A stretch of DNA of 64,000 nucleotides, taken from NCBI GenBank assembly GCA_049852185.1, contig CP187540.1; one strand, 5' to 3'. Below are positions 7,134-41,636 of the stretch, piece after piece. A program made the position numbers and the translations under genes. Below the pieces are notes generated by a model, which was not told the DNA's origin, made no database searches, and worked only from the letters and a program-made list of their open reading frames with translations. Origin of the DNA: Methanocaldococcus sp. 28A (lineage in GTDB: Archaea; AGJL01; Methanococci; Methanococcales; Methanocaldococcaceae). Numbering within the stretch: position 1 is the first letter of the stretch; every line of letters starts with the position of its first letter.

Positions 7134-8268
7134 TAGGACTTTCGCATCCACATTTAAATACTTAGATTAACGATAAACCAATTTCTTCACACAAAGAGAT
7201 TATGGCATTACCAACAGCTATTCGATTTAGTTTTCTTCTAAGTTCGTACCAACTGATATTTTTATCGATTCTAATTTTCTCTAAGAGGTAGAAGGCTCTC
7301 ATAGAAAGGGAGATATGACCTAAAATTGGAAATTTTTTTCTAACGAAGAAATTGCCTGTATTACAGCACTGTTTAACACCCCTATGGAATTCCTCGATTC
7401 TCCAAGAGGCGTTTTTGACCTCTTGGAATTCTTCGAAACTCATAAATAGGTTATTAGTTATATAATATTTTGCCTTTCCGTTTTTGGAAAGGCAGAAGAG
7501 TCTGACATAGCCAACTTTTCGTAGATAAACGATTAATCCATTCTTAGGAATTTCCTTAATGTCTTCGATTGATACCCACTCTCTGTTTTTGGAGAGTTTT
7601 ACCTTTCTATTCCTTTTAATTCTGCAGAGGTAGAATAAACCTAAACTATCGATAAGTTTTAAGTTATCTTTACTTGAATACCAACTATCGAAACAGATAT
7701 ATCTAATATTTAATCCTTTATCCACTAAAGACTTTATTATCTCCCTACATAAATTATTTTTCGTCTTTCCATCTCTTGGTCTGTCATATACTCTAAAATC
7801 GATTGGAATAATATGTTTTCCATTTGTAATTATGCAATCAACGATATGTATGCCTTTAATTACTCGTTTATGTAGATTACTCCAACAATAATAAGCAAAT
7901 TCAGTCGATTTAGAGTAAATTTTATCTATAACAAAGTCATCTATAACGACAATATTATAATCAGGAGTGATAAAATCTTTAACGAAATTAAAAAGCTTTT
8001 CTTGTGGGAAGATTCCTTCTTCCCAAAGTATTCTATTTATTGTATCGTGAGATATGTCGATTCCGAAAATACGCAACGTTTTCGATAACTCTACACACGA
8101 ATTAATCTCTGAAAGTAATATAAAAAGCATATAAAAGATAGTCCTCGACATTTTTAGCATATTTTCCCCAAAATAAACTTTTTGTTTCGAAAAATTATAA
8201 TATCTAATAAAAATAGATTATCATGAAATGTTATAATAAAATATTTAAATATGCTTGCAAAAGTCCTA
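7134..8268 (-). mobile_element. IS701-family insertion sequence, apparently intact
   Basis: Imperfect terminal inverted repeats taggactttcgcatccacatttaaata (7134-7160) and tatttaaatatgcttgcaaaagtccta (8242-8268); TTATAA on both flanks (7128-7133, 8269-8274); single DDE transposase. Confidence 0.88.
7162..8160 (-). CDS. DDE transposase (IS701 family)
   Basis: ISHDTINR, VIDDFVIDK, PIDFRVY, FDSWYSS and WRIEEFHRGVKQ motifs. Confidence 0.9.
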   Translation of the reverse strand: MLKMSRTIFYMLFILLSEINSCVELSKTLRIFGIDISHDTINRILWEEGIFPQEKLFNFVKDFITPDYNIVVIDDFVIDKIYSKSTEFAYYCWSNLHKRVIKGIHIVDCIITNGKHIIPIDFRVYDRPRDGKTKNNLCREIIKSLVDKGLNIRYICFDSWYSSKDNLKLIDSLGLFYLCRIKRNRKVKLSKNREWVSIEDIKEIPKNGLIVYLRKVGYVRLFCLSKNGKAKYYITNNLFMSFEEFQEVKNASWRIEEFHRGVKQCCNTGNFFVRKKFPILGHISLSMRAFYLLEKIRIDKNISWYELRRKLNRIAVGNAIISLCEEIGLSLI

Positions 8269-10312: not shown

Positions 10313-11452
10313 TTAGTTGCTAATTATTTCTTTATATGTTTGTAAGTCAAATATTATGTTCTTAGCCTCTTCTGATGAAACATTTTTCAACTTACCATTT
10401 ATTAACCCTTGAAGTCTCATAGCATCAACGAATTTTATAACTTTTGGAATTACTGGTTCTAATCTATAATCATATTTTATATGTTTTACTGAAGCTTCTT
10501 CTATAGTTATATTAGTTCCAAGCCATTTAGCTGATGATTTAATAGCCAACTCTTTGTTTTTGTTAATTTCGTCAGTTGCGTCTTTTAAGAGTTTAGCAAA
10601 AGTAATTACAGCATCTCTTTTATTATTTAAAGCATTTTCAGAAGCTACTAAACAGCAACATGGATGGTTTGCCCATGTCCCCCCTGTAGAGCTTGGTAAT
10701 TCTTCACTGTAAGCAATAACTTTTCCGATTCCTCTACTTTTTATAATTTCAGGCATAGGCTCCCATGCTATAACTGCATCTAATTCCTTTTGAGCTAACA
10801 TTTGAGGCATTGTTTTTTGACCTTTACAGTTAATTAATAAAACCATTGCACTTTTGTTATTAGGGTTTTCAGTGTATGTAATTCCTTCAGCTTTTAAAGC
10901 ATCTTTAATCATGACATATTGGATTGATGTAGGAAGAGGATGCCCTATTTTTACTTGATATCCTTTTTTATGTTCCTCTTTTATCCAATTTATAAATTCT
11001 TCCCAATTATTTGCAGGAATATCATTTCTAACGACTACTGCTGAACCTTCTGTATGCAAATTCATTATAACCTTAGCTTTTGTACCCTTGTCAATGTAGA
11101 AGATTACAGGAGGATATCCTAATAAAGCAACATCAACCTGTCCCTGAGTCATTAAGTTCATGATACTTGCTCCACCCTCAGTAACTTCAACAAGTCTTAT
11201 ATTTGCAATCTTTTTATCTCCTTTGTATAATTCATACTCTTCTTTATCTTTAACTGCTTTTAAGTAAATTCCATATTTATTTTTAAACAAATCTGGGTAG
11301 TCACAGGCTACAAATAACGCTGCATGGTGGTCTGTTGGTAAATAAGCTACTGTTAATGTAGGAACTTCTGATGTTTGCTGGTTTTGGACACATCCCGCAA
11401 ATAGAACTATAGATGAAATTAATAAAGCCATCACTGCATATATCTTTTTCAT
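10313..11452 (-). CDS. ABC transporter substrate-binding lipoprotein (NitT/TauT/SsuA-like)
   Basis: Lipobox LFAGC; [17 protein letters not shown] and NHPCCCL motifs. Confidence 0.88.
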
Positions 11453-28207: not shown

Positions 28208-29353
28208 TTAATTTTTAGATAAATTTTGATAGTATTTTAATAGTTGAGCCTCTAAATCTTTAATGCTTCCATTGAATTTGATAACTTTTTTTCCATTCTC
28301 TAAAAGTTTTAAGTTTAGTCTATTCATCTCACCAACTGGAAAGTTTGTATCTATAACTACATCACACATTTTTAAGTATTTTAGTGCCTTATTAAAACTA
28401 TCTTCTGAAATTGGTTGATAAGCTTTCTCTTCAATAATCTCAACTTCCATAGTTTTAGCTATTACATAATCAATATCATTCTCATGTAAGACCCCACAAT
28501 AAACCTTATATCCATTTTTAACCAAATATCTCAAAACATTGGCCCCACTTCCTCCTCCACAAACAACAAAAACTTTTTTATCACTTGTATTTTCATTTTT
28601 TAATTCAAAATAACCAATTTCTTTACTAAAATTTGCATTTTTTAAATCATAGAGGTTATTTACTGTTTCTTTGTCCATAACATCTTCTGGATGTCCATAA
28701 GCTATTATCCTACCATTTTTGATTAGTGCTATTTTGTCGGCAATCCTTAAGGCGAGTTCTATATCATGAATAGTCACAATTATAGCGAGATTTTTTTCTG
28801 TTGCCAATTTTCTCAACAACAAAGTAAGCTCTATCTTGTGCCTTGCATCTAAAAAGGATGTGGGTTCATCTAAAATTAAAACCTTTGGTTCTTGTGCTAA
28901 TGCCCTTGCTATCATTATCTTCTGTCTTTCTCCATCACTCATTTCAAGGAAGTTTTTTTCTAATAAGTGAAGAGCATTAACAGCTTTCGCAGAATTTATA
29001 ATAATTTCCTTATCCTTCTCAGATAATCTTCCAAATAAATCTGTATAGGGATGCCTTCCTATTGCAATTATATCAAATCCTGTTAAATTTCCTGGATTTA
29101 CTCTTTCTGTTAAAACTACAGCCATTTTTTTAGCAAGTTGAGAAGGTTTTAGTTTATGTATTATATTTGAATCTAAATAAACTACTCCTTTTATAGGTTC
29201 TAAGTATGTCGCTATACACTTCAATAGTGTTGATTTTCCAACACCATTTGGTCCTATTATTGCCAAAATTTCTCCTTCTTTAACTTCTAAATTTACATTA
29301 TCGACGACAACCCTCTTATGATAACCAACGGCAAGGTTCTCAGTTTTTAACAT
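28208..29353 (-). CDS. ABC ATPase, iron-complex/cobalamin (FecE/BtuD) type, with C-terminal extension
   Basis: GPNGVGKST, GRHPY, MSDGERQK, LDEPTSFLD; extra domain starting VFVVCGGGSG. Confidence 0.92.
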   Translation of the reverse strand: MLKTENLAVGYHKRVVVDNVNLEVKEGEILAIIGPNGVGKSTLLKCIATYLEPIKGVVYLDSNIIHKLKPSQLAKKMAVVLTERVNPGNLTGFDIIAIGRHPYTDLFGRLSEKDKEIIINSAKAVNALHLLEKNFLEMSDGERQKIMIARALAQEPKVLILDEPTSFLDARHKIELTLLLRKLATEKNLAIIVTIHDIELALRIADKIALIKNGRIIAYGHPEDVMDKETVNNLYDLKNANFSKEIGYFELKNENTSDKKVFVVCGGGSGANVLRYLVKNGYKVYCGVLHENDIDYVIAKTMEVEIIEEKAYQPISEDSFNKALKYLKMCDVVIDTNFPVGEMNRLNLKLLENGKKVIKFNGSIKDLEAQLLKYYQNLSKN

Positions 29354-29387
29354 TTAATCACCTTAAGAATATTAAAAATTAAAACCA

Positions 29388-31421
29388 TTAAAATCTTCTA
29401 TTATATATTTTAATTAAAAATAGCCCTATTAAAAATCCAATTAAAGTAATTCCCGTATTAAAGCTATTGTTTGTATCTTCCTCGATTTCTACTCTTTTTG
29501 TGATTGTGTAATTTTTTACAATTTTATTAATCTTTATAATAACTTTTGATTGATTAATTGTTAAATTGTAGTAATAATCTTTGAATTTCATCTCTTTTGG
29601 CTTTATGATTTCAACAGACTCTTTAAAATTCCATATATAATCTTTTAATCTTTTATAAGGCATATAATATATAACATAACCTTTTATTTCTGTGCTTTGT
29701 GAAATATTTATTGGAATTGAAAATATTTTTGTTTCATTTGGCGGTAATTCAAATGAAATACTTGTTTTATTTGGTTTGTAGTTATCATAATCTACAAAGT
29801 AAATATATCCTCTAATCTTCTTATTGAATGGATTTTTAACTGTAATATTGCAATATATTGTTACATTTGTCTCATTAGTTCCATTAAGATATATTGTTTT
29901 ATTACTAAGAGAAACATTGATAAGATTTAACTTTTTTATTTCTATTACACATTCATCAGATGTTGTATGACCAAAAGTATCATTAACTTTTAATTTTACA
30001 AGATAAACACCTTCTTTTTTATATTTATGAACAGGGTCTGGAGTTGTTGATGTTGAATTATCACCAAAATTCCAATAGTAGTAAAGTTCAGTACTACCCT
30101 GACATAAAGAATAGAAATGTACTTCGTAATTATCAACAATCTCAAAAGCAAAGTATGCTTTTGGTAATGATATATTTTCCTCTGATATCGGAATTATATG
30201 AACAATCATTGTGTCTTTCAATGGAACTTCTACAATTTTTCCATTTTCATCAAACAGGTAAATATAAGAAATTTTTATCTCTGTCGTTAGATTTTCATTC
30301 TTTAGTGGTTCTATCCAGAAAGACAAAATATTAAAGTTACCACTTTTTGTTCCATTTATTCTAATATCAAAATCTAATGTTCCATTTTCAACAGACCAAT
30401 TTTTTTCAATAGTATTTAAACTTGTAGATATATCACTAATTTTTAGTATAGAAGAATTATATGTTATTTTTCCTTTAATTTCAGATATATTTGCATCAAT
30501 ATTTTTTGCTTCAATGTAACAAAGTTTAATATCTCCATAGGTAATATTTTCTTCAGTAGTATAAAAACCAACATACTTTTCTGTAGTAATGGTCTCATTC
30601 CCTATGGTAAAATTTGCGGGTTTTACAATAGTTTCATTACCATTTATTTTTATAGATGCATTAATTATATAATTTCCAGTTTTATTGGTAAAAAATGTTA
30701 ATTTCATCAAATCAAAATCTTCTTTTGAGGTATTTAAATTTATAAAAAAAGATAAACTGTTATCATTATAATTCAAATTTACATTTGAAATGTTATCTTC
30801 TAAATAATAAAAGTTTAAATTTACTAAAGTTAAATTAGGGTAATATATTGTTCCTGTTATATTGGTTATATTTCCTTTTGCATTTTTTATTGAAACAATT
30901 GTATCAAAATTCTCATTTAACTTTGGATTTATAGGGGTTATTTCTACAATTGTTAAATTTAATCCAATAATAGTTATATTTACAGAATTATAGGTTACAT
31001 TTTTTAATACATCCCCATTTTCATCAGAAAGTACAGGCTTTTGAAAAATTGTATATGTCCCATTATTTAATGTCCTAAATTTCAAAGTAGCGATTGTAAT
31101 GTTCCCAGATGGATAATTACTAAACCATGCTAATTGTATATTTATTATGCCATTCTCAACAGAAATTTTCTTTAAATTTGCATTATTACTTATATCACTT
31201 AAAATTATATCATCTGGAGTTATATTTAGAGAGGTTGGGTAATATATAGTATCTTGAAATCCACCCAATTTTTCAGATGTATTAACGGTTAGGGTTAATG
31301 TAAAGGAGTCATATTCCTTGATAGTAATATTCTCTGGAATTAGTTTAACCTCATCACCGAAACTTGTATGAAAATATAATATAAATGGAATTAAAACTAA
31401 TATTAAAAATTTCTGTCTCAT
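29388..31421 (-). CDS. Membrane-anchored surface protein: about 3 cohesin-like modules + PKD + Ig-like domain + C-terminal TM
   Basis: Signal peptide; LGGFQDTIYYP...IATLKF...LSDENG cohesin pattern; EIKGKITYNSSILKI; PKD motif YYWNFGD...PVHKY...GVYLVKLKV; TM helix + RRF. Confidence 0.8.
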   Translation of the reverse strand: MRQKFLILVLIPFILYFHTSFGDEVKLIPENITIKEYDSFTLTLTVNTSEKLGGFQDTIYYPTSLNITPDDIILSDISNNANLKKISVENGIINIQLAWFSNYPSGNITIATLKFRTLNNGTYTIFQKPVLSDENGDVLKNVTYNSVNITIIGLNLTIVEITPINPKLNENFDTIVSIKNAKGNITNITGTIYYPNLTLVNLNFYYLEDNISNVNLNYNDNSLSFFINLNTSKEDFDLMKLTFFTNKTGNYIINASIKINGNETIVKPANFTIGNETITTEKYVGFYTTEENITYGDIKLCYIEAKNIDANISEIKGKITYNSSILKISDISTSLNTIEKNWSVENGTLDFDIRINGTKSGNFNILSFWIEPLKNENLTTEIKISYIYLFDENGKIVEVPLKDTMIVHIIPISEENISLPKAYFAFEIVDNYEVHFYSLCQGSTELYYYWNFGDNSTSTTPDPVHKYKKEGVYLVKLKVNDTFGHTTSDECVIEIKKLNLINVSLSNKTIYLNGTNETNVTIYCNITVKNPFNKKIRGYIYFVDYDNYKPNKTSISFELPPNETKIFSIPINISQSTEIKGYVIYYMPYKRLKDYIWNFKESVEIIKPKEMKFKDYYYNLTINQSKVIIKINKIVKNYTITKRVEIEEDTNNSFNTGITLIGFLIGLFLIKIYNRRF

Positions 31422-31438
31422 TGTTATCCCCCATATTA

Positions 31439-32272
31439 TTATTTAAATCTTGTTAATATAAATCCAAAAATAACTCCTACTATCACTCCAAATACTAAAT
31501 AAAGAATATCCGTTTCTATATTATTAGAATTGACCTTTTTTTCAACAATTATCTTAACAACAGGCTGATATTCAGTTACATTAATCTCTTTAACAATAAC
31601 TTCTGGCCCATTAACATTTGGGGTTATATATATTCTGTTTACTATGGTAGAAGGTGAGGTAGTTCCCAAAGATACATCTTCTTCTTTTAAATTTTGGATA
31701 GATATGTTTGTTAAACTTCCTATTCCTTTAATAATAACCTTTGCTCCAAAAAATTCAGTACTAGGATACTTTTTCCATTGAAGAGTTTGATACTCTTCAT
31801 ATGAATTTATGCCATTGTATGCATATCCTAATGCTGAACTAATAGACCCTGAAATATTTAATTGAGTTTCTCCTTCCTTAATTGGAACAAACATTATTTC
31901 TCCAATACTAAAATCTTCTTCAATAGGGTTTTTAAAAACGATTTTTAGTGAGAACGTCCCATTTTTGAAATCATAAGATTTTAGCATACCCTCTTTATTA
32001 CATAAACTACTCCAATTGAACCCATATGGTTTTAGATAGTCAGGAGAATAGTTTATATTTATTTGAACACCTCTACATCCTCCATCTTCTTCCCCATCAC
32101 TATATTTAATATCACCAACTTTGGGTATATTTTCAACAGTAATATTAAACTTAATTATACTACCATTTGTAATGACTTCATTAGGAACTAATTTAACATA
32201 AATATTGTCTCCATAGGAGATATTTAAAAGAAAAATAAAAGCTAAAAGAGAAAACACCAAATATTTACTCAT
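31439..32272 (-). CDS. Membrane-anchored single-cohesin-like protein
   Basis: Signal peptide; FNITVENIP...GCRGVQININYSPDYL...IGEIMFVPIKEG; C-terminal TM + RFK. Confidence 0.72.
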   Translation of the reverse strand: MSKYLVFSLLAFIFLLNISYGDNIYVKLVPNEVITNGSIIKFNITVENIPKVGDIKYSDGEEDGGCRGVQININYSPDYLKPYGFNWSSLCNKEGMLKSYDFKNGTFSLKIVFKNPIEEDFSIGEIMFVPIKEGETQLNISGSISSALGYAYNGINSYEEYQTLQWKKYPSTEFFGAKVIIKGIGSLTNISIQNLKEEDVSLGTTSPSTIVNRIYITPNVNGPEVIVKEINVTEYQPVVKIIVEKKVNSNNIETDILYLVFGVIVGVIFGFILTRFK

Positions 32273-32278
32273 TATTAA

Positions 32279-32842
32279 TCACCTTTTTTTAACTATGTAT
32301 GCTATGGCTCCGATTAATACAATTATAATTATTAAAATAGCTAATAAAGTGGAATTAAACGAAAATGTATTGTTTTTTTCAAGATTTTGAGAAGTATTTG
32401 ATATATTTAACACATTTACTTCTAAAGTTTTGAGAGGAATTTTTATAGCATATCCCTCACTGTTCGACCCAACTGCCTTTACATCTATCCAAGCCTTTCC
32501 GGGCTTTATAGCTTTTATTATTACATCTCCTACTATAAAATCTCCATTTTTTGGATTATTTAAAAAAGCATACTCAATAAATGCACTATTGTTATTATTT
32601 TTTGTTAAGTTTAGATCTGCTCCTATATTATAGTTTATAACTTTTTCTATAACCAAATTATCTGAAACATAAATATTACACTGCAAACCACCACAATTTG
32701 AAACATTCTTTGCATAAATTTCTACAGTAAATATCTCCCCTTTTTTTACTTCAGAAGGAGCTTTTACTAAGATATCTAATGCCATACAGGAGGGTAGTAT
32801 AAAAAAAATCAATAGTGCTATATATTTTCTCATCTTATTCAT
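32279..32842 (-). CDS. Membrane-anchored single-cohesin protein
   Basis: Signal peptide; GEIFTVEIYAKNVSNCGGLQCNI...IKAIKPG...SNSEG; C-terminal TM + KKR. Confidence 0.78.
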   Translation of the reverse strand: MNKMRKYIALLIFFILPSCMALDILVKAPSEVKKGEIFTVEIYAKNVSNCGGLQCNIYVSDNLVIEKVINYNIGADLNLTKNNNNSAFIEYAFLNNPKNGDFIVGDVIIKAIKPGKAWIDVKAVGSNSEGYAIKIPLKTLEVNVLNISNTSQNLEKNNTFSFNSTLLAILIIIIVLIGAIAYIVKKR

Positions 32843-33008
32843 GATATCACCGAACTATAGTTTATTTTACTTATATTAAAAAATACCGTAAAATATATAT
32901 AACTCTATATAGTAAACGACATTATGTTAACTTAAGATTTTTTTATACAATTTCACAATATCTTTAACATTACTAATAACAATACTAATATAAATATTAA
33001 ATGGTGGT

Positions 33009-34373
33009 ATGATGCCGAAAAATATTAATATTATTGGGTATATATTAATTACTGTTTTCTTACTATTAGTTCCAGCATATGGAGAAAGCGTAGATGACTA
33101 TAAATATAGATTAGGTGACATCAACAAGGATGGCTCAGTAAATATCGCAGATGTCGTATACTTGTTTAAGCATTTAAATGATGTTCCAGTATATGATGGT
33201 GACTTAAACGCAGATGATAGCGTAGATATTGCAGATGTTGTGTATCTATTTGTTCATTTACAACAGTTGAGTGCACCAATTCACTACGCTAAACTATTAA
33301 AAATAACCTACTATGATAAAAATGGGAATATCGTTAACCCATACAATGGAGAGCCATACGCATATAAAATCGTTGTAGATGCCACAGGACAAAGATTCTT
33401 ACTAAAAAATGAAAGTGAACCAATTCCAGCATGGGCTGAAGGAAAATACGATAAAGTAATCAATGTTCCATTAAAAAGAGTAGTAGTAATGAGTTCCACC
33501 CACATAGCATTAATGGAACCACTAAACAATGATGGTTCAGTAATTGCTTCAGTAAAGGGAATAATGTGGGGAGGAAAATACAAGTGGTACTTTAAAGATA
33601 TAGAAGAGGGCTTAAATAATGGCTCAATAATTGATGTTGGTTCAACATACAATCCTAATTGGAACTTAATTCTTAATCTTTCACCACAAGTTATATTTGT
33701 CTATCCAGGATACAGTGGAGATGCAATAATTGAAAAATGTAAGGAATTAAACTTAACATATGTTGCAGATGCTGAATACTTAGAAGATTCCTACCTTGCA
33801 AGATGTGAATGGGTAAAGATGTTTGCAGCATTCTATAATAAAGAAGATGTAGCAAAAGAATACTTCACAAGAATCGAAAAGAACGCATTAAATGTTAAAA
33901 GAATTGTAAGTAAAAGTGATACAAGACCATTAGTAGCATGGGGTAAGAATTATCCTTCATTCGGAGGAACCTACGTCCCTAAAGGACAATCATACGTTGC
34001 TAAGGGAATCGAGTACTGTGGAGGAGACTATATATTCAAGGATATCCCAGGAACTGGCAGTGCATGCATAGATTATGAGACATTTGCAGAGAGGGCTAAA
34101 GATGCAGATGTGTGGGTAATACCATCAAGCACAACATGGTTAACAACATTTAAAGAAGATGATCCAGGGTATGAATACTTCAAAGCAGTTAAAAATGGGC
34201 GAGTATTCTGTATAAGTGATGATTACTGGCAACTTGGATTAATGAACACTGATCAAGTATTAGAAGATTTAGCAACAATAATTCATCCGGAACTATTCAA
34301 GGGAAGAACTACTCACTTCTTCCTAAAGTACTATCCGGATAATAATACAGCAGTGCCATATACTGCTAGTTAA
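33009..34373 (+). CDS. Dockerin-bearing ABC substrate-binding protein (TroA-like helical backbone, Fe-complex/cobalamin class)
   Basis: Cleavable signal peptide (AYG/E, no lipobox Cys); duplicated Ca-binding repeat GDINKDGSVNIADVVYL...GDLNADDSVDIADVVYL; VPLKRVVVMSST, EWVKMF, AVKNGRVF, LEDLATIIHPE. Confidence 0.88.
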   Translation: MMPKNINIIGYILITVFLLLVPAYGESVDDYKYRLGDINKDGSVNIADVVYLFKHLNDVPVYDGDLNADDSVDIADVVYLFVHLQQLSAPIHYAKLLKITYYDKNGNIVNPYNGEPYAYKIVVDATGQRFLLKNESEPIPAWAEGKYDKVINVPLKRVVVMSSTHIALMEPLNNDGSVIASVKGIMWGGKYKWYFKDIEEGLNNGSIIDVGSTYNPNWNLILNLSPQVIFVYPGYSGDAIIEKCKELNLTYVADAEYLEDSYLARCEWVKMFAAFYNKEDVAKEYFTRIEKNALNVKRIVSKSDTRPLVAWGKNYPSFGGTYVPKGQSYVAKGIEYCGGDYIFKDIPGTGSACIDYETFAERAKDADVWVIPSSTTWLTTFKEDDPGYEYFKAVKNGRVFCISDDYWQLGLMNTDQVLEDLATIIHPELFKGRTTHFFLKYYPDNNTAVPYTAS

Positions 34374-34431
34374 GTGAAATTCCTTTTCCTTCTTTTTAAA
34401 CTTTTAAAAATAAAGTTTTTGAAGGTGACGA

Positions 34432-37400
34432 TTGATGAAATGGAAGATAATTATAATGTCAATAATGTCAATTTTAATGGCATTACTAATTGGTGTTAAT
34501 GGAGAAAACGTAACTGTAGAATTAATTCCTAGTGATGTAAATGTATATGTTGGGGATACCTTTAACTTAGATTTAATTGTCGAAAATATCCCAAATGGAA
34601 CAATATCTGATGGTTTTTATAACTACTCTGGATACTGTGGAGGATTCCAAACAGATATTTATTATGATCCATCTGTATTAAATATAAGCCAAAATGATGT
34701 GATTTTAAGTAATGTAAGTAATAGCGCGTCAATTAAAAATGTGGATGTCGAAAATGGAAAAATAAATATACAATTAGCATGGTTTAGTAATTATCCTTCT
34801 GGAAACTTTACAATCGCTACTTTGAAATTTAAAGCATTAAAGCCATCAAATGTTGTAGTTTCATTGAGTAATACTGTAATATCAAATAAAGATGGAAATT
34901 ACACATGGAAAGTTAGTAATAACAATTTAATTTTAAAAGATTCAAATGTAACGATATTATTTAAACCAATTGCCGATTTAATAGTGCCTAAACTATTAAA
35001 TGCTGAATATGGAGAGAACATAACTGTTCCAGTAACTATAGCTCCTAAAGAAAATGAAACTTTAAAATTAATCGAAGGGTATTTATCATACGATAAAAAT
35101 ATGTTAAAACCTGTAAATGTATCTTCAAATGTAGGGACAGTTTTCTTCAACAGTTCAAGTGGTTTCTTTAAAATAGATAATATAAATCAATCTAACAATT
35201 TCACAATTAACATTACCTACAATGTAATAAATGTTGGTAATACAACAGTAAAATTAGACAATGTCTATATGGAAGACACAAATGGAAGTTTTGTAAGTAA
35301 TATTTCGTCTAATGCTACTGAAATAGTAATTCCTGGACCAGATTTAGTTTGTGAAATAGTTCCAGAGCTTTTAAAAGCTTATGAAAACAATACTATTTCA
35401 GTAGTTGTAAAGAATATAGGAGAAAGAAATGTAACAAACAACTTCACTGTTACCTTGTACGCAGATACATTTGAAATAGGGTCATGTGTAGTTAACGGAT
35501 TAGATGTTGGTCAAACTAAGGAAGTAAACTTTACATTCATGCCTACCGAAGAGAAAAACTATACACTTGTTGCTGTAGTTGATACAAACAACAATGTAAA
35601 AGAGATTAATGAATATAATAATAAATATGTTTGTAATTTATATGCTGTAGAATTACCAATTAGTGTAAATTTAGAATCTTCAACAAATGTAACAAAAATA
35701 GAATATACCTTCGAAGTAAACCTTACATTAAACAATATAACTCCTGAAAGACCTGCAAAGGCTATACAAGGAGTTTTAACGTATAATCCAAATGTAGTAG
35801 AGTGTACAAACTTCACATTCTTGATAACGCCTTCTGAAGTAAATGGAACATTCTTAGAAAATATTACATACGAAAAAGGAAAGGTATTGTTCAAATTAAT
35901 GGATGGAAATATTAACCATTCAATAGTCATAGCTACTGCTAAATTCATAGGAATAGATGTAGGTAATTCAAATATTGAATTATCTGATCTTGTAGTTTCT
36001 GACATAAATGGATACAAGTTTAACAAATTATTGACTAATAACGTAAGTATCATTGTACAAGGGCCAAATCTTAAAATAGTTAATCTAAGTGTACCAAATC
36101 CTTCAAAATATAGAGTTCCAACAACAATAAATGTTACAATAACTAACAATGGACACCAAGATGTAAATAAATCATTTAATGTTGCATTGTATGCAGATAC
36201 AGAAGAAATTGGAGAAGTAACTGTTAATGGTCTAAATATTAGCCAAGTTAAAACAATAGTATTTAACTGGACTCCAGATGATACAAGGACATATACTATA
36301 GTAGCTGTTGTTGATCCAAATAATGTAATTAAAGAGGAAAATGAAAGTGATAACAAGGTTGTTAAAGAAGTAAAAGTTATTGAGATACCAGTATGGGTTT
36401 CAGTATATAACACAACCCCTGTAATAAATGGAACATTTAATGCTACAATAGAAGTTAAGGGTATTGAAGATAAAAGACCATGTGGTGGATATCAGGGAGT
36501 ATTGATTCTCAAAAACTTAAAAATTGAAAATATAGAACTTCTTGGGCCAAAATCCTGCACAAACTATACTATAAACAATAATGAGTTAATGTTTATGGGA
36601 TACAATTTCACAGAGACAGGTACATTTAAAATAGCAAATATAACCTTTAAAATTATTGATGAAAATAAAAACTATTCAGCAATATTAGAAAATATGGTAT
36701 TATCTGATGAAGATGGTTATAAATTTAAAATAGTATTTATTAATAACACAATATTGCCTGAATACTTACAGAATATCTTTAAAGGATTATGTATTGAATC
36801 AGGAGTTCTTGATAAGTTAGATATTGAAAATGCAAAATTAGAAACTGCGGGAAACATTACTTTAGTAATATTACCACTGAAAATAGGAAATGTTGGAGAT
36901 GAGTTAATAATTCCAAAAGTTAGTAATAATATAACAATTAATATTACAGATGACGTTATTACAAAAATAAATTCTACATTGACAGATGCAAAAATATTAG
37001 ATGAAATTACTAAATCGATAAATGATGAAGAAGAACTAAATAAAACATTAGATATGATATTAGAAAAAATAGAACCGATACTTTGCGAAGGATTTAACAT
37101 AACAAACAAAACTAAAGAAGAACCAAAGAAGATAAACAATAAATTAATAGCTACAATAAAGTTTAAGGCTGAAAACACATCAAACAAAGGATTTGCAATC
37201 GTTAGAATTCCAATTGGTGAATTAAAAGTTGAAAGTATTGTTGTAAATAACGGAACTACTAATATTACCCTAAAAGAAAATGATATTAACAGTAATGTAG
37301 GTTGGTATAGATATGTAGATACTGGAATTATTGAAATTACCTTAATAAATGACCCTGAAGTAAGTATAACTCTAGCTAAGACATTACCTGTAATTCAAAC

Positions 37401-37896
37401 TACTACAACTACAACTTATTACTATATTGGAGGGGGTGGAGGAGTATCTTCAATAGTAAAAATGTATCCAAATGTAGCACCAGACATAAAATCAGAAAAA
37501 ATAAGAGAATTTGTATATAGAGCAAAATTAATCGTCGGTTCAGAAATAGACTTAAACTTATCAGCAAAATGCCTTAAAAATGAATCAGAGTTAATAAAAC
37601 AACCAATAGATATAACCGAAGACTGCATTTTAATTGGAGGACCAGTAGCAAATCCATTAGTTAAAAAATACATGTGGGTATTCCCAGTAAAAGTAACTAA
37701 CGACTATCCAGGAAAACACAAAGGAGTTATAGAGAAACAAATAATAAACGGACACACAGTAATCTTATTAGCAGGTTCAGATAGATGGGGAACAAAAGCA
37801 GCTGTAGAATACTTCAAAACATTAGACGATATTCCATCAGAACCAATATTCGTAGAATGGATTAACGGAACTGCCATAAAGATTAATAAACCTTAA
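34432..37896 (+). CDS. Scaffoldin-like surface protein: about 4 cohesin-like modules, 2 CARDB domains, Thr/Gly linker, S-layer-type C-terminal domain
   Basis: Signal peptide; CGGFQTDIYYDPSVL, IEGYLSYDKNML, AIQGVLTYNPNVV, CGGYQGVL; CARDB motifs VVDTNNNVKEINEYNN and VVDPNNVIKEENESDN; IGGPVANP...LAGSDRWGTKAA. Confidence 0.83.
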   Translation: MMKWKIIIMSIMSILMALLIGVNGENVTVELIPSDVNVYVGDTFNLDLIVENIPNGTISDGFYNYSGYCGGFQTDIYYDPSVLNISQNDVILSNVSNSASIKNVDVENGKINIQLAWFSNYPSGNFTIATLKFKALKPSNVVVSLSNTVISNKDGNYTWKVSNNNLILKDSNVTILFKPIADLIVPKLLNAEYGENITVPVTIAPKENETLKLIEGYLSYDKNMLKPVNVSSNVGTVFFNSSSGFFKIDNINQSNNFTINITYNVINVGNTTVKLDNVYMEDTNGSFVSNISSNATEIVIPGPDLVCEIVPELLKAYENNTISVVVKNIGERNVTNNFTVTLYADTFEIGSCVVNGLDVGQTKEVNFTFMPTEEKNYTLVAVVDTNNNVKEINEYNNKYVCNLYAVELPISVNLESSTNVTKIEYTFEVNLTLNNITPERPAKAIQGVLTYNPNVVECTNFTFLITPSEVNGTFLENITYEKGKVLFKLMDGNINHSIVIATAKFIGIDVGNSNIELSDLVVSDINGYKFNKLLTNNVSIIVQGPNLKIVNLSVPNPSKYRVPTTINVTITNNGHQDVNKSFNVALYADTEEIGEVTVNGLNISQVKTIVFNWTPDDTRTYTIVAVVDPNNVIKEENESDNKVVKEVKVIEIPVWVSVYNTTPVINGTFNATIEVKGIEDKRPCGGYQGVLILKNLKIENIELLGPKSCTNYTINNNELMFMGYNFTETGTFKIANITFKIIDENKNYSAILENMVLSDEDGYKFKIVFINNTILPEYLQNIFKGLCIESGVLDKLDIENAKLETAGNITLVILPLKIGNVGDELIIPKVSNNITINITDDVITKINSTLTDAKILDEITKSINDEEELNKTLDMILEKIEPILCEGFNITNKTKEEPKKINNKLIATIKFKAENTSNKGFAIVRIPIGELKVESIVVNNGTTNITLKENDINSNVGWYRYVDTGIIEITLINDPEVSITLAKTLPVIQTTTTTTYYYIGGGGGVSSIVKMYPNVAPDIKSEKIREFVYRAKLIVGSEIDLNLSAKCLKNESELIKQPIDITEDCILIGGPVANPLVKKYMWVFPVKVTNDYPGKHKGVIEKQIINGHTVILLAGSDRWGTKAAVEYFKTLDDIPSEPIFVEWINGTAIKINKP

Positions 37897-38062
37897 ATAT
37901 CCCTTCCCATTTATTTTTTTATTTTATTTTGGTAATAATATTTTTAAATATTTTCATACTTTTAACAATATTTAATTAAAATTATCATAAATTATATATA
38001 TAAAATATGTTAAATTATTATCATATAACATTATTTGAAAAAAAATAATACGGATGGATATC

Positions 38063-39391
38063 ATGTTTAAGAAAATAGTATTATTAATAATGGCTATTTT
38101 ATTGACACCATTGGCATTTGGAGAAAACGTAGGAGATATAAATGGAGATGGGTCAATAAATATTGCAGATGTGGTATATCTATTTAAGCATCTTAATGAT
38201 ATCCCCTTAGATGTTGGAGATTTAAACTGTGATAACTCAGTTGATATTGCAGATGTTGTGTATCTATTTAACAACATTCAACATTGGAGTCAACCTGTAG
38301 TATTTGCTAAGAACTTTGAAATAGAATACTATGATGCTAATGGAATTCCTGTAAGTTATAATGATAATTGGTCATATGCAATTTTAACTACAAAATATGG
38401 AGATACTATTTATAATAAATACTGTATTGTAAAAGAGGGTGAAAAGCCTCCTAGTAATTTACCTTCAGATATAAAAGTTATATATGCGCCTGTAAAAAAA
38501 GTAGCAACATTAAGTGATTTCCAAGTAGCTATGCTTGAAGCGTTAGATGATGATAAAGTAAGAGAATCTATAAAGGGAGTATCCAAATACACATACATCA
38601 GAATAAAAGATTATGGGGTATTTTCTGATTTAAAACCATATGTTGATAGTGGAGATATTGTTCCAATAGGGTCTCCTTGGGGTACAATTGATAAAGAGGC
38701 ATTATTAAATATAAGTCCAGATATTGTGTTTATCCCATGGTCACATGGCTATTTAGTCCAAGATATTAATACAGTAAAAGATTTAGGACTTAATTATCTT
38801 GTAACGGTCGAATCAAATGAACCAACATTCCTTGGAAAGGCTGAATGGATAAAAGTGTATGCTACGTTATATAATTTATGCAGTAAAGGAAATGATTTCT
38901 TCCAAAAAGTTTGGAAAAAGAGAAATGAACTTTTGAGAAAAACATATGATGTTGACTATAGACCAAAAGTAGGTATACTTTATTGGTCACCATATTCAGG
39001 ACCTTGGGTATATTGTGGCCAAAACTGTTATGCAAAATTAGTTTCAGATTTTAGAGGAGATTATGCATTTAAAGATATTCCTGGAACTTCATATGCAAAT
39101 CTTGATGAAGAAACAACCTTAGAACACTTACAAGGATGTGACGTGCTTATATATATGAACTGGAATTCATTAAACGAGCCAATAAATACACTTGAAGATT
39201 TAAAAAAAGATGTACCACAATTAGATCCAATAATAGACCATGCAAAGAGAGTGTATGTATCTAAATATAACTATGGATATGATGGATATGTACATATGGA
39301 TTTATTAATGGAAGACTTCGCAAGAATGATTCATCCAGAATGCTTTGATGGTGGAGATAGTGAATTACATTACTTCAAAAAACTGAAATAA
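38063..39391 (+). CDS. Second dockerin-bearing ABC substrate-binding protein
   Basis: Cleavable signal peptide (AFG/E); GDINGDGSINIADVVYL...GDLNCDNSVDIADVVYL; APVKKVATLS, KAEWIKVY, EDFARMIHPE. Confidence 0.88.
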   Translation: MFKKIVLLIMAILLTPLAFGENVGDINGDGSINIADVVYLFKHLNDIPLDVGDLNCDNSVDIADVVYLFNNIQHWSQPVVFAKNFEIEYYDANGIPVSYNDNWSYAILTTKYGDTIYNKYCIVKEGEKPPSNLPSDIKVIYAPVKKVATLSDFQVAMLEALDDDKVRESIKGVSKYTYIRIKDYGVFSDLKPYVDSGDIVPIGSPWGTIDKEALLNISPDIVFIPWSHGYLVQDINTVKDLGLNYLVTVESNEPTFLGKAEWIKVYATLYNLCSKGNDFFQKVWKKRNELLRKTYDVDYRPKVGILYWSPYSGPWVYCGQNCYAKLVSDFRGDYAFKDIPGTSYANLDEETTLEHLQGCDVLIYMNWNSLNEPINTLEDLKKDVPQLDPIIDHAKRVYVSKYNYGYDGYVHMDLLMEDFARMIHPECFDGGDSELHYFKKLK

Positions 39392-39490
39392 TCACACTAT
39401 TTTAATTTTGTCCTATTTTTATCTTCTAAATATTTAAATTTAAAGTTTATTAAAATATTTTTATATCTTATAAAGATAACTATAAATGAT

Positions 39491-39554
39491 TTATAGTTGT
39501 GTTCAAAATAAAATAAACTTTTATAAGGACAGATAGTTTTGCACACAACTATAA
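39491..39554. mobile_element. 64-bp internally deleted copy of the 24840 MITE
   Basis: Same ends and subterminal sequence; central hairpin missing. Confidence 0.88.
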
Positions 39555-39567
39555 ACTCTCATAGAAG

Positions 39568-40620
39568 GTGGTTATTTTGAACATTAGGATTAAAGCTCTA
39601 ACAGTATTTTTATTGTTAATGATATTTTCTTTGTCAATATTGAGTATAACTACTGGAACCATAAAAATAGAGCCAAAAAAATTTTATAACTATTTAATGG
39701 AAGGCACTACAGGTAATCCTATATATGACAAAATTATTGAAAAGTGCAGACTTCCAAGAACTGTTGGAGCAATATTTGCAGGAATGGGTTTAGCAGTAGC
39801 AGGCTTGTTGATGCAAAGTTTGTTTAGAAACCCTTTAGCTGACCCTTATCTAATAGGAGTCTCGAGTGGAGCTTCTTTAGGAGTAGCTCTTTATGTTTTT
39901 ACATCATTACTATTTAAGTTTGGTATACCTCAATCTATATGGGGATTTATAATATCTGCATACTTAGGTTCACTATTATCTATGTTCATTATTTTAGCCC
40001 TTGCAAAGAAGGTTAAACAAATTACCACACTTTTAATTGTTGGACTTATGATTGGCTATATCTCATCTGGGTTAATCACAATAGTTATTACATTTAGTGA
40101 TTTTCTTGGAGTTAATAACGATGTCTTGGCAAGTTTTATTATGTGGGGATATGGCTCTTTAAGTCAATTAACTATGAAGGAGTCAATAATTATGAGTATT
40201 TTTGTAGTTATATGTTGCTTTATAACTTACTTTTTGTCAAAATACCTTGATTCTTACTTACTTGGAGAAATGTATGCTAAGAGTGTTGGAGTTAATATAA
40301 AAAATTTGAGAATAGTTATAATTTTAATATCTTGTATGATTACAGCTAGTATTGTAGCATTTGCTGGACCAATAGGATTCGTTGGAATGGTTTGTCCAAT
40401 TGTTACAAGGTTGTTATGTGGAACATCAAAACATCTCTATGTAATTCCTAATGCTATGTTAATAGGTGCAATTTTTTTAATGATAGCGGATATTCTTGTA
40501 AGACCTGGAGTAATAATTCCAACAACAAGCACAGAACTACCTTTAATGTGTCCTTTATCAATTATTGGAGCTCCAATAGCCATAATGATATATATCAAAA
40601 GAAAAAAGATGGGGATATAA
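39568..40620 (+). CDS. FecCD/BtuC-family ABC permease
   Basis: [41 protein letters not shown] and GPIGFVG motifs. Confidence 0.93.
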
Positions 40621-41636
40621 TGAGAAAAATATCCATAATTTTGCTAATGGTTTTGTTAATATTTTCTCTATTTGTTTTTGGAATATTTAAAGGAGGTAAT
40701 GCAAAGTCAATAACTATGGATGATGTAAAAAATTTTTTAATTTATGGGACTACTGGAGATGAGTTTAAAGATACTATTATATGGGATGTTAGAATTCCTC
40801 CGTTAATAACTGCTTTAATTGTTGGAGCAGTTCTATCAGTTTCTGGATTAAAGCTACAGACACTTTTTAGAAATATTTTAGCTTCTCCATACACAACTGG
40901 AATATCCACTGGAGTTATATTGGGAGTAGCGATTACTATATTCTTAGGTTTTTCATTTTCAAATTTTTTAGAGATTCCTGATTATGTTATAGGAGGGTGG
41001 ATAGGAGCAGCTATAGCTTTAATAATATTATTGGCTCTTGCTTCAAAAATTAAGGATGTTACTGGAGTTTTAATTTGTAGTATATTGTTTGGATACTTCT
41101 ACTATGGAATTGAGAGCTATTTAATAAGTTTTGCTAACAATATCCAGATTCAAGAATTTTGGATGTTTTTACAGGGAAGTTTTTCAGGAGTAAGCTGGGA
41201 TGATTTAAAATTACTTAGTATCTGCTCAATAATCTTTTTGATATCATCCTATATGCTTTCAAAGCATTTAAATGCCCTACTTTTTGGAGAAAAATATGCA
41301 AAAAGCTTTGGTTTAAGTATAAAATATGTGAGGTTATTAATTTTATTACTCTCGGGGTTTATTGTCGGGGTTGTAATTCCTTATGTAGGTTTAATCCCAT
41401 TTATTGGTTTGGCAGCGCCATATATTGCAAGAATTCTAATGAAAACTTCAGACCACAGATGGACTATTCCTGCATCTATGTTAATTGGGATGAATATTGC
41501 TTTGATTTGTTATTTAATATCAATAAAATTATTTGCTCCAAGGGTAGTTCCTGTAAAATCAATTTTAGATTTATTAGGTGGAGCATTAGTAGTATATTTA
41601 ATATACACATCTGAAAAAAAGGTTAAATTTGAATAA
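40620..41636 (+). CDS. FecCD/BtuC-family ABC permease (second subunit)
   Basis: LQTLFRNILASPY, LLFGEKYAKSFGL and GLIPFIGL motifs; start overlaps the upstream stop (TAATG). Confidence 0.92.
   Translation: MRKISIILLMVLLIFSLFVFGIFKGGNAKSITMDDVKNFLIYGTTGDEFKDTIIWDVRIPPLITALIVGAVLSVSGLKLQTLFRNILASPYTTGISTGVILGVAITIFLGFSFSNFLEIPDYVIGGWIGAAIALIILLALASKIKDVTGVLICSILFGYFYYGIESYLISFANNIQIQEFWMFLQGSFSGVSWDDLKLLSICSIIFLISSYMLSKHLNALLFGEKYAKSFGLSIKYVRLLILLLSGFIVGVVIPYVGLIPFIGLAAPYIARILMKTSDHRWTIPASMLIGMNIALICYLISIKLFAPRVVPVKSILDLLGGALVVYLIYTSEKKVKFE

Follow-up and report, generated by a model that had tools for sequence, protein, structure and literature searches.

How are substrate-binding proteins kept at the surface of an archaeal cell if they carry neither a lipid anchor nor a membrane helix? 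The question is raised by two substrate-binding proteins (SBPs), here called SBP1 and SBP2, that are encoded in a 64,000-nt stretch of contig CP187540.1 of Methanocaldococcus sp. 28A (GCA_049852185.1). This stretch is called the window, and positions refer to it. The source genome (G000; 1,555,991 bases in two contigs) is 99.94% complete; the window is AT-rich, with a GC fraction of 0.22-0.37, and the named nearest relatives of its proteins are Methanocaldococcus species. Both SBPs carry a dockerin and are encoded next to genes for cohesin proteins. Our reading, to which we give a probability of roughly 0.65, is that the cluster at 28208-41636 specifies one iron-chelate-class ATP-binding cassette (ABC) importer, both SBPs of which are held at the envelope by cohesin-dockerin docking and not by lipid.

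A preliminary description of this DNA had started from the premise that archaea tether their SBPs by a lipid or a transmembrane helix. Both means are indeed used, but the premise omitted class III signal peptides (bindosome) and possibly archaeosortase. In the part of the review by Szabo and Pohlschroder (2012; PMC3387779) available to us, anchoring of archaeal SBPs by a C-terminal helix, by lipid and through class III signal peptides and the bindosome is listed, and docking is not.

The two binding proteins and their anchors

The genes of SBP1 (33009-34373, 454 amino acids (aa)) and SBP2 (38054-39391, 445 aa) form a plus-strand trio with that of coh1154 (34432-37896, 1154 aa), which lies between them. 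Both SBPs have the same order of parts, namely a class I-type signal peptide, a dockerin and a receptor core:

33009..33083, plus strand: SBP1 signal peptide, residues 1-25, predicted signal peptidase I site AYG/E, without cysteine (-3/-1 rule)
33084..33284, plus strand: SBP1 dockerin, residues 26-92 (Pfam, alignment, profile match to solved dockerins)
33285..34373, plus strand: SBP1 receptor core, residues 93-454 (Pfam Peripla_BP_2, profile and Foldseek matches)
38054..38122, plus strand: SBP2 signal peptide, residues 1-23, predicted signal peptidase I site AFG/E, without cysteine (-3/-1 rule)
38123..38317, plus strand: SBP2 dockerin, residues 24-88 (Pfam Dockerin_1, 28.5 bits)
38318..39391, plus strand: SBP2 receptor core (Pfam Peripla_BP_2)

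By inspection, each signal peptide consists of a charged start and a hydrophobic stretch with a proline, followed by AYG/E or AFG/E. The N-terminus of SBP1 reads MMPKNINIIGYILITVFLLLVPAYG up to the predicted cut and continues with ES, and that of SBP2 reads MDIMFKKIVLLIMAILLTPLAFG and continues with EN (the database form of SBP2, P0057, begins at the second ATG, at 38063). Cleavage sites were placed by eye with the -3/-1 rule alone. Both signal peptides lack cysteine, the lipobox [LVIMF]-[ASTP]-[GA]-C is absent, and a Kyte-Doolittle scan with a 19-residue window detected no hydrophobic segment past residue 35 in either protein. The earlier claim that SBP1 and SBP2 have neither a lipobox cysteine nor a C-terminal hydrophobic tail is thus borne out. 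A bindosome-type (class III) leader, short, charged and removed ahead of a hydrophobic pilin-like N-terminus, was not found on them either, both signal peptides being of the tripartite class I type by inspection, and no pilin-like motif or assembly gene appeared in the cluster.

The dockerins have the architecture of type I dockerins (PF00404): two segments of about 22 residues, each with a 12-residue D-x-N-x-D-G-x-x-x-x-x-D calcium loop and a helix. In SBP1 these repeats are DINKDGSVNIADVVYLF and DLNADDSVDIADVVYLF. The helix motif IADVVYLF is present in both repeats of both proteins, and the two dockerins are 66% identical. With Pfam Dockerin_1 (cut-off 22.9 bits), SBP2 scores over the cut-off, while SBP1 remains under it alone (17.0 bits) and reaches 30.5 bits when taken with its neighbours in frame. 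A profile made from five dockerins, A4, matches solved type I dockerins with a best E of 1.6e-6. Among 43 dockerin-SBPs, the calcium-loop residues D37, N39, D41, D48, D65, N67, D69 and D76 are invariant, as is, completely or nearly, much of both helices. In the whole G000 genome, Pfam and A4 alike return two dockerins, those of SBP1 and SBP2.

As for the receptor cores, both match Pfam Peripla_BP_2 (E 9.2e-23 for SBP1 and 5.5e-12 for SBP2), and the SBP1 core has a profile match in the PDB to the Fe-citrate-binding protein YfmC (E 8.7e-9). The structural model of SBP1 has a predicted local distance difference test (pLDDT) value of 91.0, with 84-93 in its dockerin part; Foldseek matches its core best to proteins that bind iron, siderophores, haem or B12, with E values of 1.9e-13 and weaker. 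On the basis of this model, the SBP1 core is predicted to have the fold of iron-chelate, haem and B12 binding proteins. The Peripla_BP_2 match, the two-lobe fold and the presence nearby of FecCD permeases and a FecE-type ATPase are the features of class III, or cluster A, SBPs of type II ABC importers (PF01497). Over their whole length SBP1 and SBP2 are 37% identical. The transporter genes are the following:

28208..29353, minus strand: ABC transporter ATPase of the FecE/corrinoid type, 381 aa, closing the minus-strand run (Pfam ABC_tran, E 7.2e-30)
39568..40620, plus strand: FecCD-type permease 1 (Pfam FecCD, E 4e-72)
40548..41636, plus strand: FecCD-type permease 2 (Pfam FecCD, E 9.6e-66)

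The best NCBIfam matches of the ATPase are corrinoid and FecE ATPases, both under their equivalog cut-offs. From the sequence, permease 2 likely starts with the ATG at position 40620, where its start codon and the permease 1 stop codon overlap.

Other binding proteins of the same genome carry a lipobox. The one already pointed out in the preliminary description does have the LFAGC motif ascribed to it:

10313..11452, minus strand: comparator binding protein of the NMT1_2 family, lipobox LFAGC (Pfam, N-terminus)

Two more were found in G000, of the families PBP_like_2 (..SLCGC) and SBP_bac_11 (..ALCGC), by a heuristic signal-peptide screen that was non-exhaustive, Pfam having been applied to 20 of its 91 candidates. 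A strict lipobox expression had given 5 candidates only and missed sites of the LCGC type, hence the looser screen.

The most direct comparison comes from orthologues of SBP1. Six of them lack a dockerin (in G002, G005, G007, G008, G013 and G016, genomes that are 99, 99, 99, 86, 86 and 99% complete, respectively); they align only from query residue 84-92 and are 63-70% identical over the core. A check on the closest dockerin-less homologues had been set beforehand, and its outcome was uniform: all six have a lipobox (LPGC, IAGC, LSGC twice and MSGC twice) and behind it a low-complexity linker of 20-50 residues up to a conserved YAK motif at the start of the core, and no cohesin match was found in any of the six genomes. 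In G007 the same transporter is present, with an ATPase 74% identical and permeases 60% and 49% identical, and both its SBPs have lipoboxes (IAGC, FAGC). These socket-free relatives, which bear a lipid anchor at the same position, constitute a natural control. SBP1 and SBP2 thus share receptor core and transporter with the lipobox SBPs of euryarchaea and Gram-positives, but have a folded 65-residue dockerin instead of a lipobox and linker, and no cysteine in the signal peptide. More distant homologues, Archaeoglobus-named or metagenomic, also carry lipoboxes, and one (P0053) has an N-terminal helix and a linker. The proposal that the dockerin takes the usual place of a lipid anchor appears well supported by this comparison, which extends from the six orthologues to the more distant lipobox homologues and the three lipobox SBPs of G000 itself.

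An N-terminal hydrophobic helix with a long linker, rich in Thr/Val or in Pro/Gln, is in fact seen in three homologues, P0053, P0051 and P0056, the last two of which are proteins of 762 aa with an extension. One receptor family would therefore display three types of tether: lipobox, helix and dockerin.

We also placed the anchor types on a tree of the receptor core. It has 74 rows; 24 of the 96 homologue hits were excluded, namely fragments, fused or atypically long sequences (P0022, P0023, P0037, P0042, P0049, P0051, P0056, P0059, P0078 and P0080) and everything from P0082 on. Anchor type requires only 4 changes on this tree, compared with a mean of 20.1 after shuffling, and none of 200 shuffles gave a number as low. 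The SBP1 dockerin forms make up one clade, with a Shimodaira-Hasegawa-like approximate likelihood ratio test (SH-aLRT) value of 96, the SBP1 lipobox forms lie in an unresolved basal group, and a lone lipobox form falls inside the SBP2 dockerin clade (SH-aLRT 98). The tree search was a quick one and came with a long-branch warning, so that the anchor change may have gone in either direction.

One could also suppose that the signal peptides remain uncleaved and serve as N-terminal anchors, in which case the dockerin would only cluster already anchored receptors on scaffolds near the permease. The uncharged stretch of 15-22 residues, found in all 43 dockerin-SBPs, is compatible with an uncleaved anchor, and homologue P0053 seems to be anchored by an N-terminal helix. 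On the other hand, when the 43 N-termini were read by eye (positions were not counted by script), all had a charged n-region, position -1 was A or G and position -3 small or aliphatic, and most had a proline in the c-region. The hydrophobic stretch and the predicted cut are followed by the dockerin without any linker, whereas 20-50 linker residues intervene in the helix and lipobox homologues. Moreover, if a helix already anchored the protein, a lipobox in place of the dockerin would be needless upon loss of the cohesins. We consider this explanation improbable and keep to retention by docking.

Cohesin sockets encoded with the transporter

What could the two dockerins bind to? Four cohesin proteins, named here after their lengths, are encoded around SBP1. 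On the minus strand, a run of four close-set genes, coh187, coh277, coh677 and the ATPase gene, points away from SBP1, its genes being separated by 6, 17 and 34 bases, with the last gap between coh677 and the ATPase gene downstream of it; the fourth cohesin gene is that of coh1154.

29388..31421, minus strand: coh677, with signal peptide, cohesins, PKD domain and C-terminal hydrophobic helix (cohesin hidden Markov model (HMM); Pfam PKD, E 1.3e-11)
31439..32272, minus strand: coh277, with signal peptide, one cohesin, stalk of about 85 residues and C-terminal hydrophobic helix (cohesin HMM)
32279..32842, minus strand: coh187, with signal peptide, one cohesin (22-155), linker and C-terminal transmembrane helix (164-186) (AlphaFold2 model, Foldseek)
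34432..37896, plus strand: coh1154, scaffoldin-like, with signal peptide, cohesins, two CARDB domains and a C-terminal S-layer-like domain, without transmembrane helix (Pfam, cohesin HMM)

The cohesin HMM, trained on the N-terminal module of each of these proteins, places cohesins at residues 24-168, 419-547 and 667-773 of coh1154, with a weak additional one at about 191-299; at residues 23-156 and 291-385 of coh677, with a weak third at about 175-260; at residues 21-165 of coh277; and at residues 22-155 of coh187. In coh677, the matches of profile A1 lie at 30954-31352 and 30234-30554, and the PKD domain spans residues 430-490. At E<=1e-3 the whole genome has 7 cohesin matches, all within 30234-36774 in these four neighbouring genes. 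In total 7-9 sockets are available for two cargo proteins, and all are encoded with the ATPase and the permeases. For the three smaller cohesin proteins the Kyte-Doolittle scan gives one hydrophobic segment past residue 35, at the C-terminus; for coh1154 it gives no such segment.

Pfam recognizes coh1154 as a cohesin protein (Cohesin 37.2 bits with a cut-off of 24.1, CARDB E 1.1e-34, S_layer_C E 3.4e-8). The Pfam Cohesin family (PF00963) gave no match in coh187, coh277 and coh677, which are linked to the first cohesin of coh1154 by HMM and alignment; coh187 and coh277 matched no Pfam family at all. For coh187, an AlphaFold2 model made with 17 orthologues has a mean pLDDT of 84.7, and 123 residues exceed 90. 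It consists of a beta-sandwich of 11 strands (residues 22-145), a low-confidence linker of some 10-13 residues (150-162) and a helix (164-186). Its best Foldseek matches in the PDB are cohesins (E 1.3e-8, probability 1.00; template modelling (TM) score 0.57 by query and 0.72 by target), the cohesin of Archaeoglobus fulgidus (2xdh) is match 7 with E 4.8e-8, and among the matches listed all are cohesins or cohesin-like with the exception of 9ifr, a CLIPPER domain. According to this model coh187 has a predicted cohesin fold, which in that family is a flattened jelly-roll of about 140 residues. It is a minimal membrane socket.

The signal peptide of coh187 reads ..FFILPSC/MA. Its cysteine is conserved in 8 of 9 orthologues from the same genus, whereas the other family lacks it. 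This residue could be part of a lipobox, in which case the socket would have a second anchor, or of the c-region of a signal peptidase I site (CMA/L). In the second family, the coh187 orthologues (loci L016-L023) have a C-terminal helix of the ..IFSWIIEIISSLLRRIFGG type, which is amphipathic and not hydrophobic.

We then asked whether dockerin and cohesin go together in 40 Methanococcales genomes, G000 included, to which the results of profile A4 are confined. A cohesin was called by profile A1 at E<=1e-3 and an SBP-type dockerin by A4. Pfam Dockerin_1 had been tried as the order-wide profile and detected dockerins in 20 of the 40 genomes only; it was replaced by A4 because it missed dockerins evident to the eye and caught a second, C-terminal type. 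Cohesins are present in 27 genomes and SBP-type dockerins also in 27; 26 genomes have both modules, 12 have neither, one (G017) has the dockerin only and one (G030) the cohesin only. The G030 assembly has a completeness of 64%, and a contig there ends inside the SBP1 orthologue, at residue 153; the truncated gene shares this contig with a cohesin. By coordinates, a dockerin-SBP gene lies <=2 kb from a cohesin module in each of the 27 cohesin-positive genomes, among which are G021-G023, from the genetically tractable Methanococcus. Judging from frame sizes, all four classes of socket protein occur in the same divergent arrangement in at least 13 of these 27, in both families. Across the order, the dockerin form accompanies cohesin genes and the lipobox form their absence. 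One genome, G006, has only a socket of the coh187 type together with two dockerin-SBPs, which suggests that the membrane-anchored single socket is the core of the system.

A second, classical type of cohesin-dockerin pair exists in some relatives and is absent from G000. In G026 (L070, C1:485800-491800), a protein with CARDB repeats has a C-terminal dockerin in which GDVTGDGIVDAGDAIKILRY occurs twice, and its gene immediately precedes that of a cohesin-CARDB protein of 501 aa. Other relatives have frames of about 516 aa, of which the last 194 residues were seen, and here too the dockerin is C-terminal (frames listed: G025, G033, G037, G030 and G004).

The dockerin-like module could alternatively work through something other than these cohesins, either as a calcium-dependent stabilising or regulatory element or by binding the S-layer or a glycan, the cohesins having another ligand. 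The absence of a Pfam cohesin match in three of the four cohesin proteins would agree with this. However, it fits poorly with the distribution given above, where only 2 of 40 genomes are discordant and the genes are adjacent in every cohesin-positive genome, with the predicted cohesin fold of coh187, and with the fact that G000 has no other dockerin to serve its 7 cohesin modules. An argument for such a role also comes from G017. This genome is 99% complete in one contig and has a dockerin-SBP beside a FecE-type ATPase (locus L007, 9553-10824), but no cohesin was detected in it by A1 (E<=10), by Pfam PF00963 (E<=10) or by the genus-level profile A5 (E<=1). In five related cluster representatives, M. 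maripaludis-named or grouped with them in the tree, dockerin identity amounts to 92-100%, compared with just 50-81% for the receptor core. In three of the five a cysteine stands two residues before the predicted cut (PSVC/AQ, PSAC/AQ), and from the sequence it may form a weak lipobox. The retention of a dockerin-SBP without cohesin in G017 also speaks for the uncleaved N-terminal anchor considered above. Taking both sides together, we find a role independent of the cohesins decidedly improbable, and docking to the cohesins is retained as the preferred reading.

Proposed docking of the receptors

How, then, would the system operate? The precursors of SBP1 and SBP2 would cross the membrane through the Sec pathway, and signal peptidase I would remove their leaders behind AYG and AFG, respectively. 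The new N-terminus would fold with two calcium ions into the dockerin, which could plug into any of the 7-9 cohesin modules. These would form a gradation of heights. The socket of coh187 would lie some 10 residues off the membrane and that of coh277 on its stalk of about 85 residues; coh677 would contribute 2-3 sockets, and coh1154 another 3-4 at the S-layer. Receptors docked near the membrane would hand their ligand to the FecCD heterodimer, and those docked higher would raise the local number of receptors. The near identity of the dockerins on both receptors implies that they would compete for the same sockets. The preliminary description went further in supposing that SBP1 and SBP2 might be lost from the cell without docking and that docking might permit receptor exchange; these are stronger and more conjectural claims than retention itself.

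The pairing of coh187 (residues 22-155) with the SBP1 dockerin (residues 26-96) and two calcium ions was submitted to complex prediction. The median score was 0.37 (0.37, 0.20 and 0.39 for the individual runs) and the best of three controls was 0.01; the runs agree in at least 4% of contacts and the pLDDT of the partners is at least 75. Of 157 solved complexes, 116 reach the mark applied, as do 2 of 215 mismatched pairs, but at scores <=0.60 only 18 of the 157 solved complexes reached it, and both passing mismatches did so there. This prediction lends weak support to a coh187-SBP1 dockerin complex.

Several points weigh against retention by docking. The co-occurrence may reflect few independent events, related genomes not being independent of one another; the number of separate swaps is small as well, the lipobox forms of SBP1 being in a single unresolved basal group. 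G017 indicates that a dockerin-SBP can persist without a recognisable cohesin, and the constraint on the dockerin in its group implies that some partner not seen by us must exist there. The length of the uncharged stretch in the signal peptides leaves room for an uncleaved anchor. From the amphipathic ends of the second-family coh187 orthologues, it follows that membrane attachment of the socket is not uniform between families. The outcome of the complex prediction may reflect likeness only, because cohesin-dockerin complexes have already been solved. Finally, cohesins and dockerins usually bind each other very tightly, a property at odds with ready exchange of receptors.

Docking might also be real and have a main purpose other than anchoring. 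The sockets would then build an S-layer-associated capture array or surface matrix, in which scavenging receptors would be gathered at a distance from the membrane, and transport would be carried out by undocked or transiently released receptors kept in the quasi-periplasm by the S-layer. In favour of such an array are the excess of sockets over two cargo proteins, the S-layer-like and CARDB domains of coh1154 together with its lack of a membrane helix, and the PKD domain of coh677. It accounts less well for G006, where the only socket is a membrane-anchored, single-cohesin coh187 orthologue serving two dockerin-SBPs, and for the lipobox swap in cohesin-free genomes, which points to membrane retention as the shared need. 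We therefore regard it as unlikely, and anchoring of the receptors by docking remains our preferred explanation.

A more far-reaching possibility, which we put forward tentatively and think somewhat less probable than its contrary, is that the ladder of cohesin sockets, from coh187 on its 10-residue stalk to coh1154 at the S-layer, arrays many receptors across the quasi-periplasm in a cellulosome-like 'transportosome'. The dockerin would be a constant adaptor there, and the receptor would be free to diversify or to be swapped. The G017-type group fits this idea, its dockerins being far more alike than its cores, and so do the two paralogues of G000, whose dockerins are 66% identical when the whole proteins are 37% identical.

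Relation to known systems and other features of the cluster

The cluster resembles the anchoring part of the bacterial cellulosome, with which it shares a type I-like, two-repeat calcium dockerin, the cohesin fold and multi-cohesin scaffolds, one of them with an envelope-attachment domain. The differences are nonetheless considerable. The cargo of the cellulosome consists of glycoside hydrolases, whereas here it is two SBPs of an ABC transporter. The dockerin is N-terminal here, directly after the signal peptide, and the system is closed, with 2 dockerins in the entire genome. Bacterial scaffoldins are held by S-layer-homology modules or by sortase, while the sockets described here have C-terminal membrane helices or a Methanococcales S-layer-like domain. 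In the Pfam annotation of the cluster proteins we found no carbohydrate-active enzyme, glycoside hydrolase or carbohydrate-binding module. It is not a cellulosome.

To our knowledge, no role has been assigned to archaeal cohesin and dockerin modules since they became known in 1999. Those of A. fulgidus were reportedly called an 'enigmatic vestige' in the title of Bayer 1999, and Haimovitz 2008 is said to be another source on them. The A. fulgidus cohesin 2xdh and the modules studied here have in common an archaeal cohesin fold outside cellulose degradation; the latter differ in lying within a transporter cluster with identifiable cargo.

Parallels are also found in anaerobic methanotrophic (ANME) archaea. 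As far as the available part of the paper by Chadwick et al. (2022, PLoS Biol; PMC9012536) goes, SBPs of ABC transporters are common dockerin carriers in these organisms, their function is left open, scaffoldin-like proteins with up to 5 cohesins are described, and the meaning of archaeal cohesin and dockerin modules was still called unclear. Dockerin-tagged SBPs had thus already been noted, in another lineage and on another SBP family than the Peripla_BP_2 receptors of the present cluster. That part of the paper contains no genetic linkage between cohesins and transporter, no lipobox/dockerin swap and no co-occurrence analysis, all three of which are described here. We found no literature report of this system in Methanococcales, although the survey of non-cellulosomal modules by Peer et al. 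(2009, FEMS Microbiol Lett) may list its genes. The bindosome offers another parallel, as archaeal SBPs would in both cases be held on a proteinaceous surface structure without lipid, but the signal peptides here are of class I type.

One would also wonder what such a system could teach us. It is closed, comprising a single transporter, its two cargo proteins and four proteins with sockets, and the role proposed for it is specific and testable. If our reading is right, receptors of a transporter are retained on archaeal cells non-covalently and in a calcium-dependent manner. This would also explain the frequent dockerins on SBPs of other archaea, and protein scaffolding would gain thermostable cohesin-dockerin pairs whose partners are known. 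It is plausible that the cluster gives a first physiological role for archaeal cohesin-dockerin pairs, a role that would consist in the arraying of receptors if the 'transportosome' exists; in that case a fourth way of holding SBPs without an outer membrane would join lipid, helix and bindosome.

As for the non-coding parts of the cluster, one region separates the two divergent gene groups:

32843..33008: intergenic region between coh187 and SBP1, 166 bases, AT-rich (read from sequence)

A GGTGGT that resembles a ribosome-binding site stands directly 5' of the SBP1 ATG. A search of the AT-rich intergenic regions of the cluster for a shared operator gave nothing convincing. In the gap between SBP2 and permease 1, a 19-base inverted repeat (39490-39555), 95% complementary and with 28 bases between its arms, could be a hairpin or an operator.

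Elsewhere in the window, a 332-aa open reading frame beginning MLKMSRTI.. (7162-8160, minus strand) has at least 8 full-length copies in G000 and one 190-aa partial copy, and from its sequence it looks like an insertion sequence. The second contig of this genome (C2), with 10,393 bases, is possibly a plasmid.

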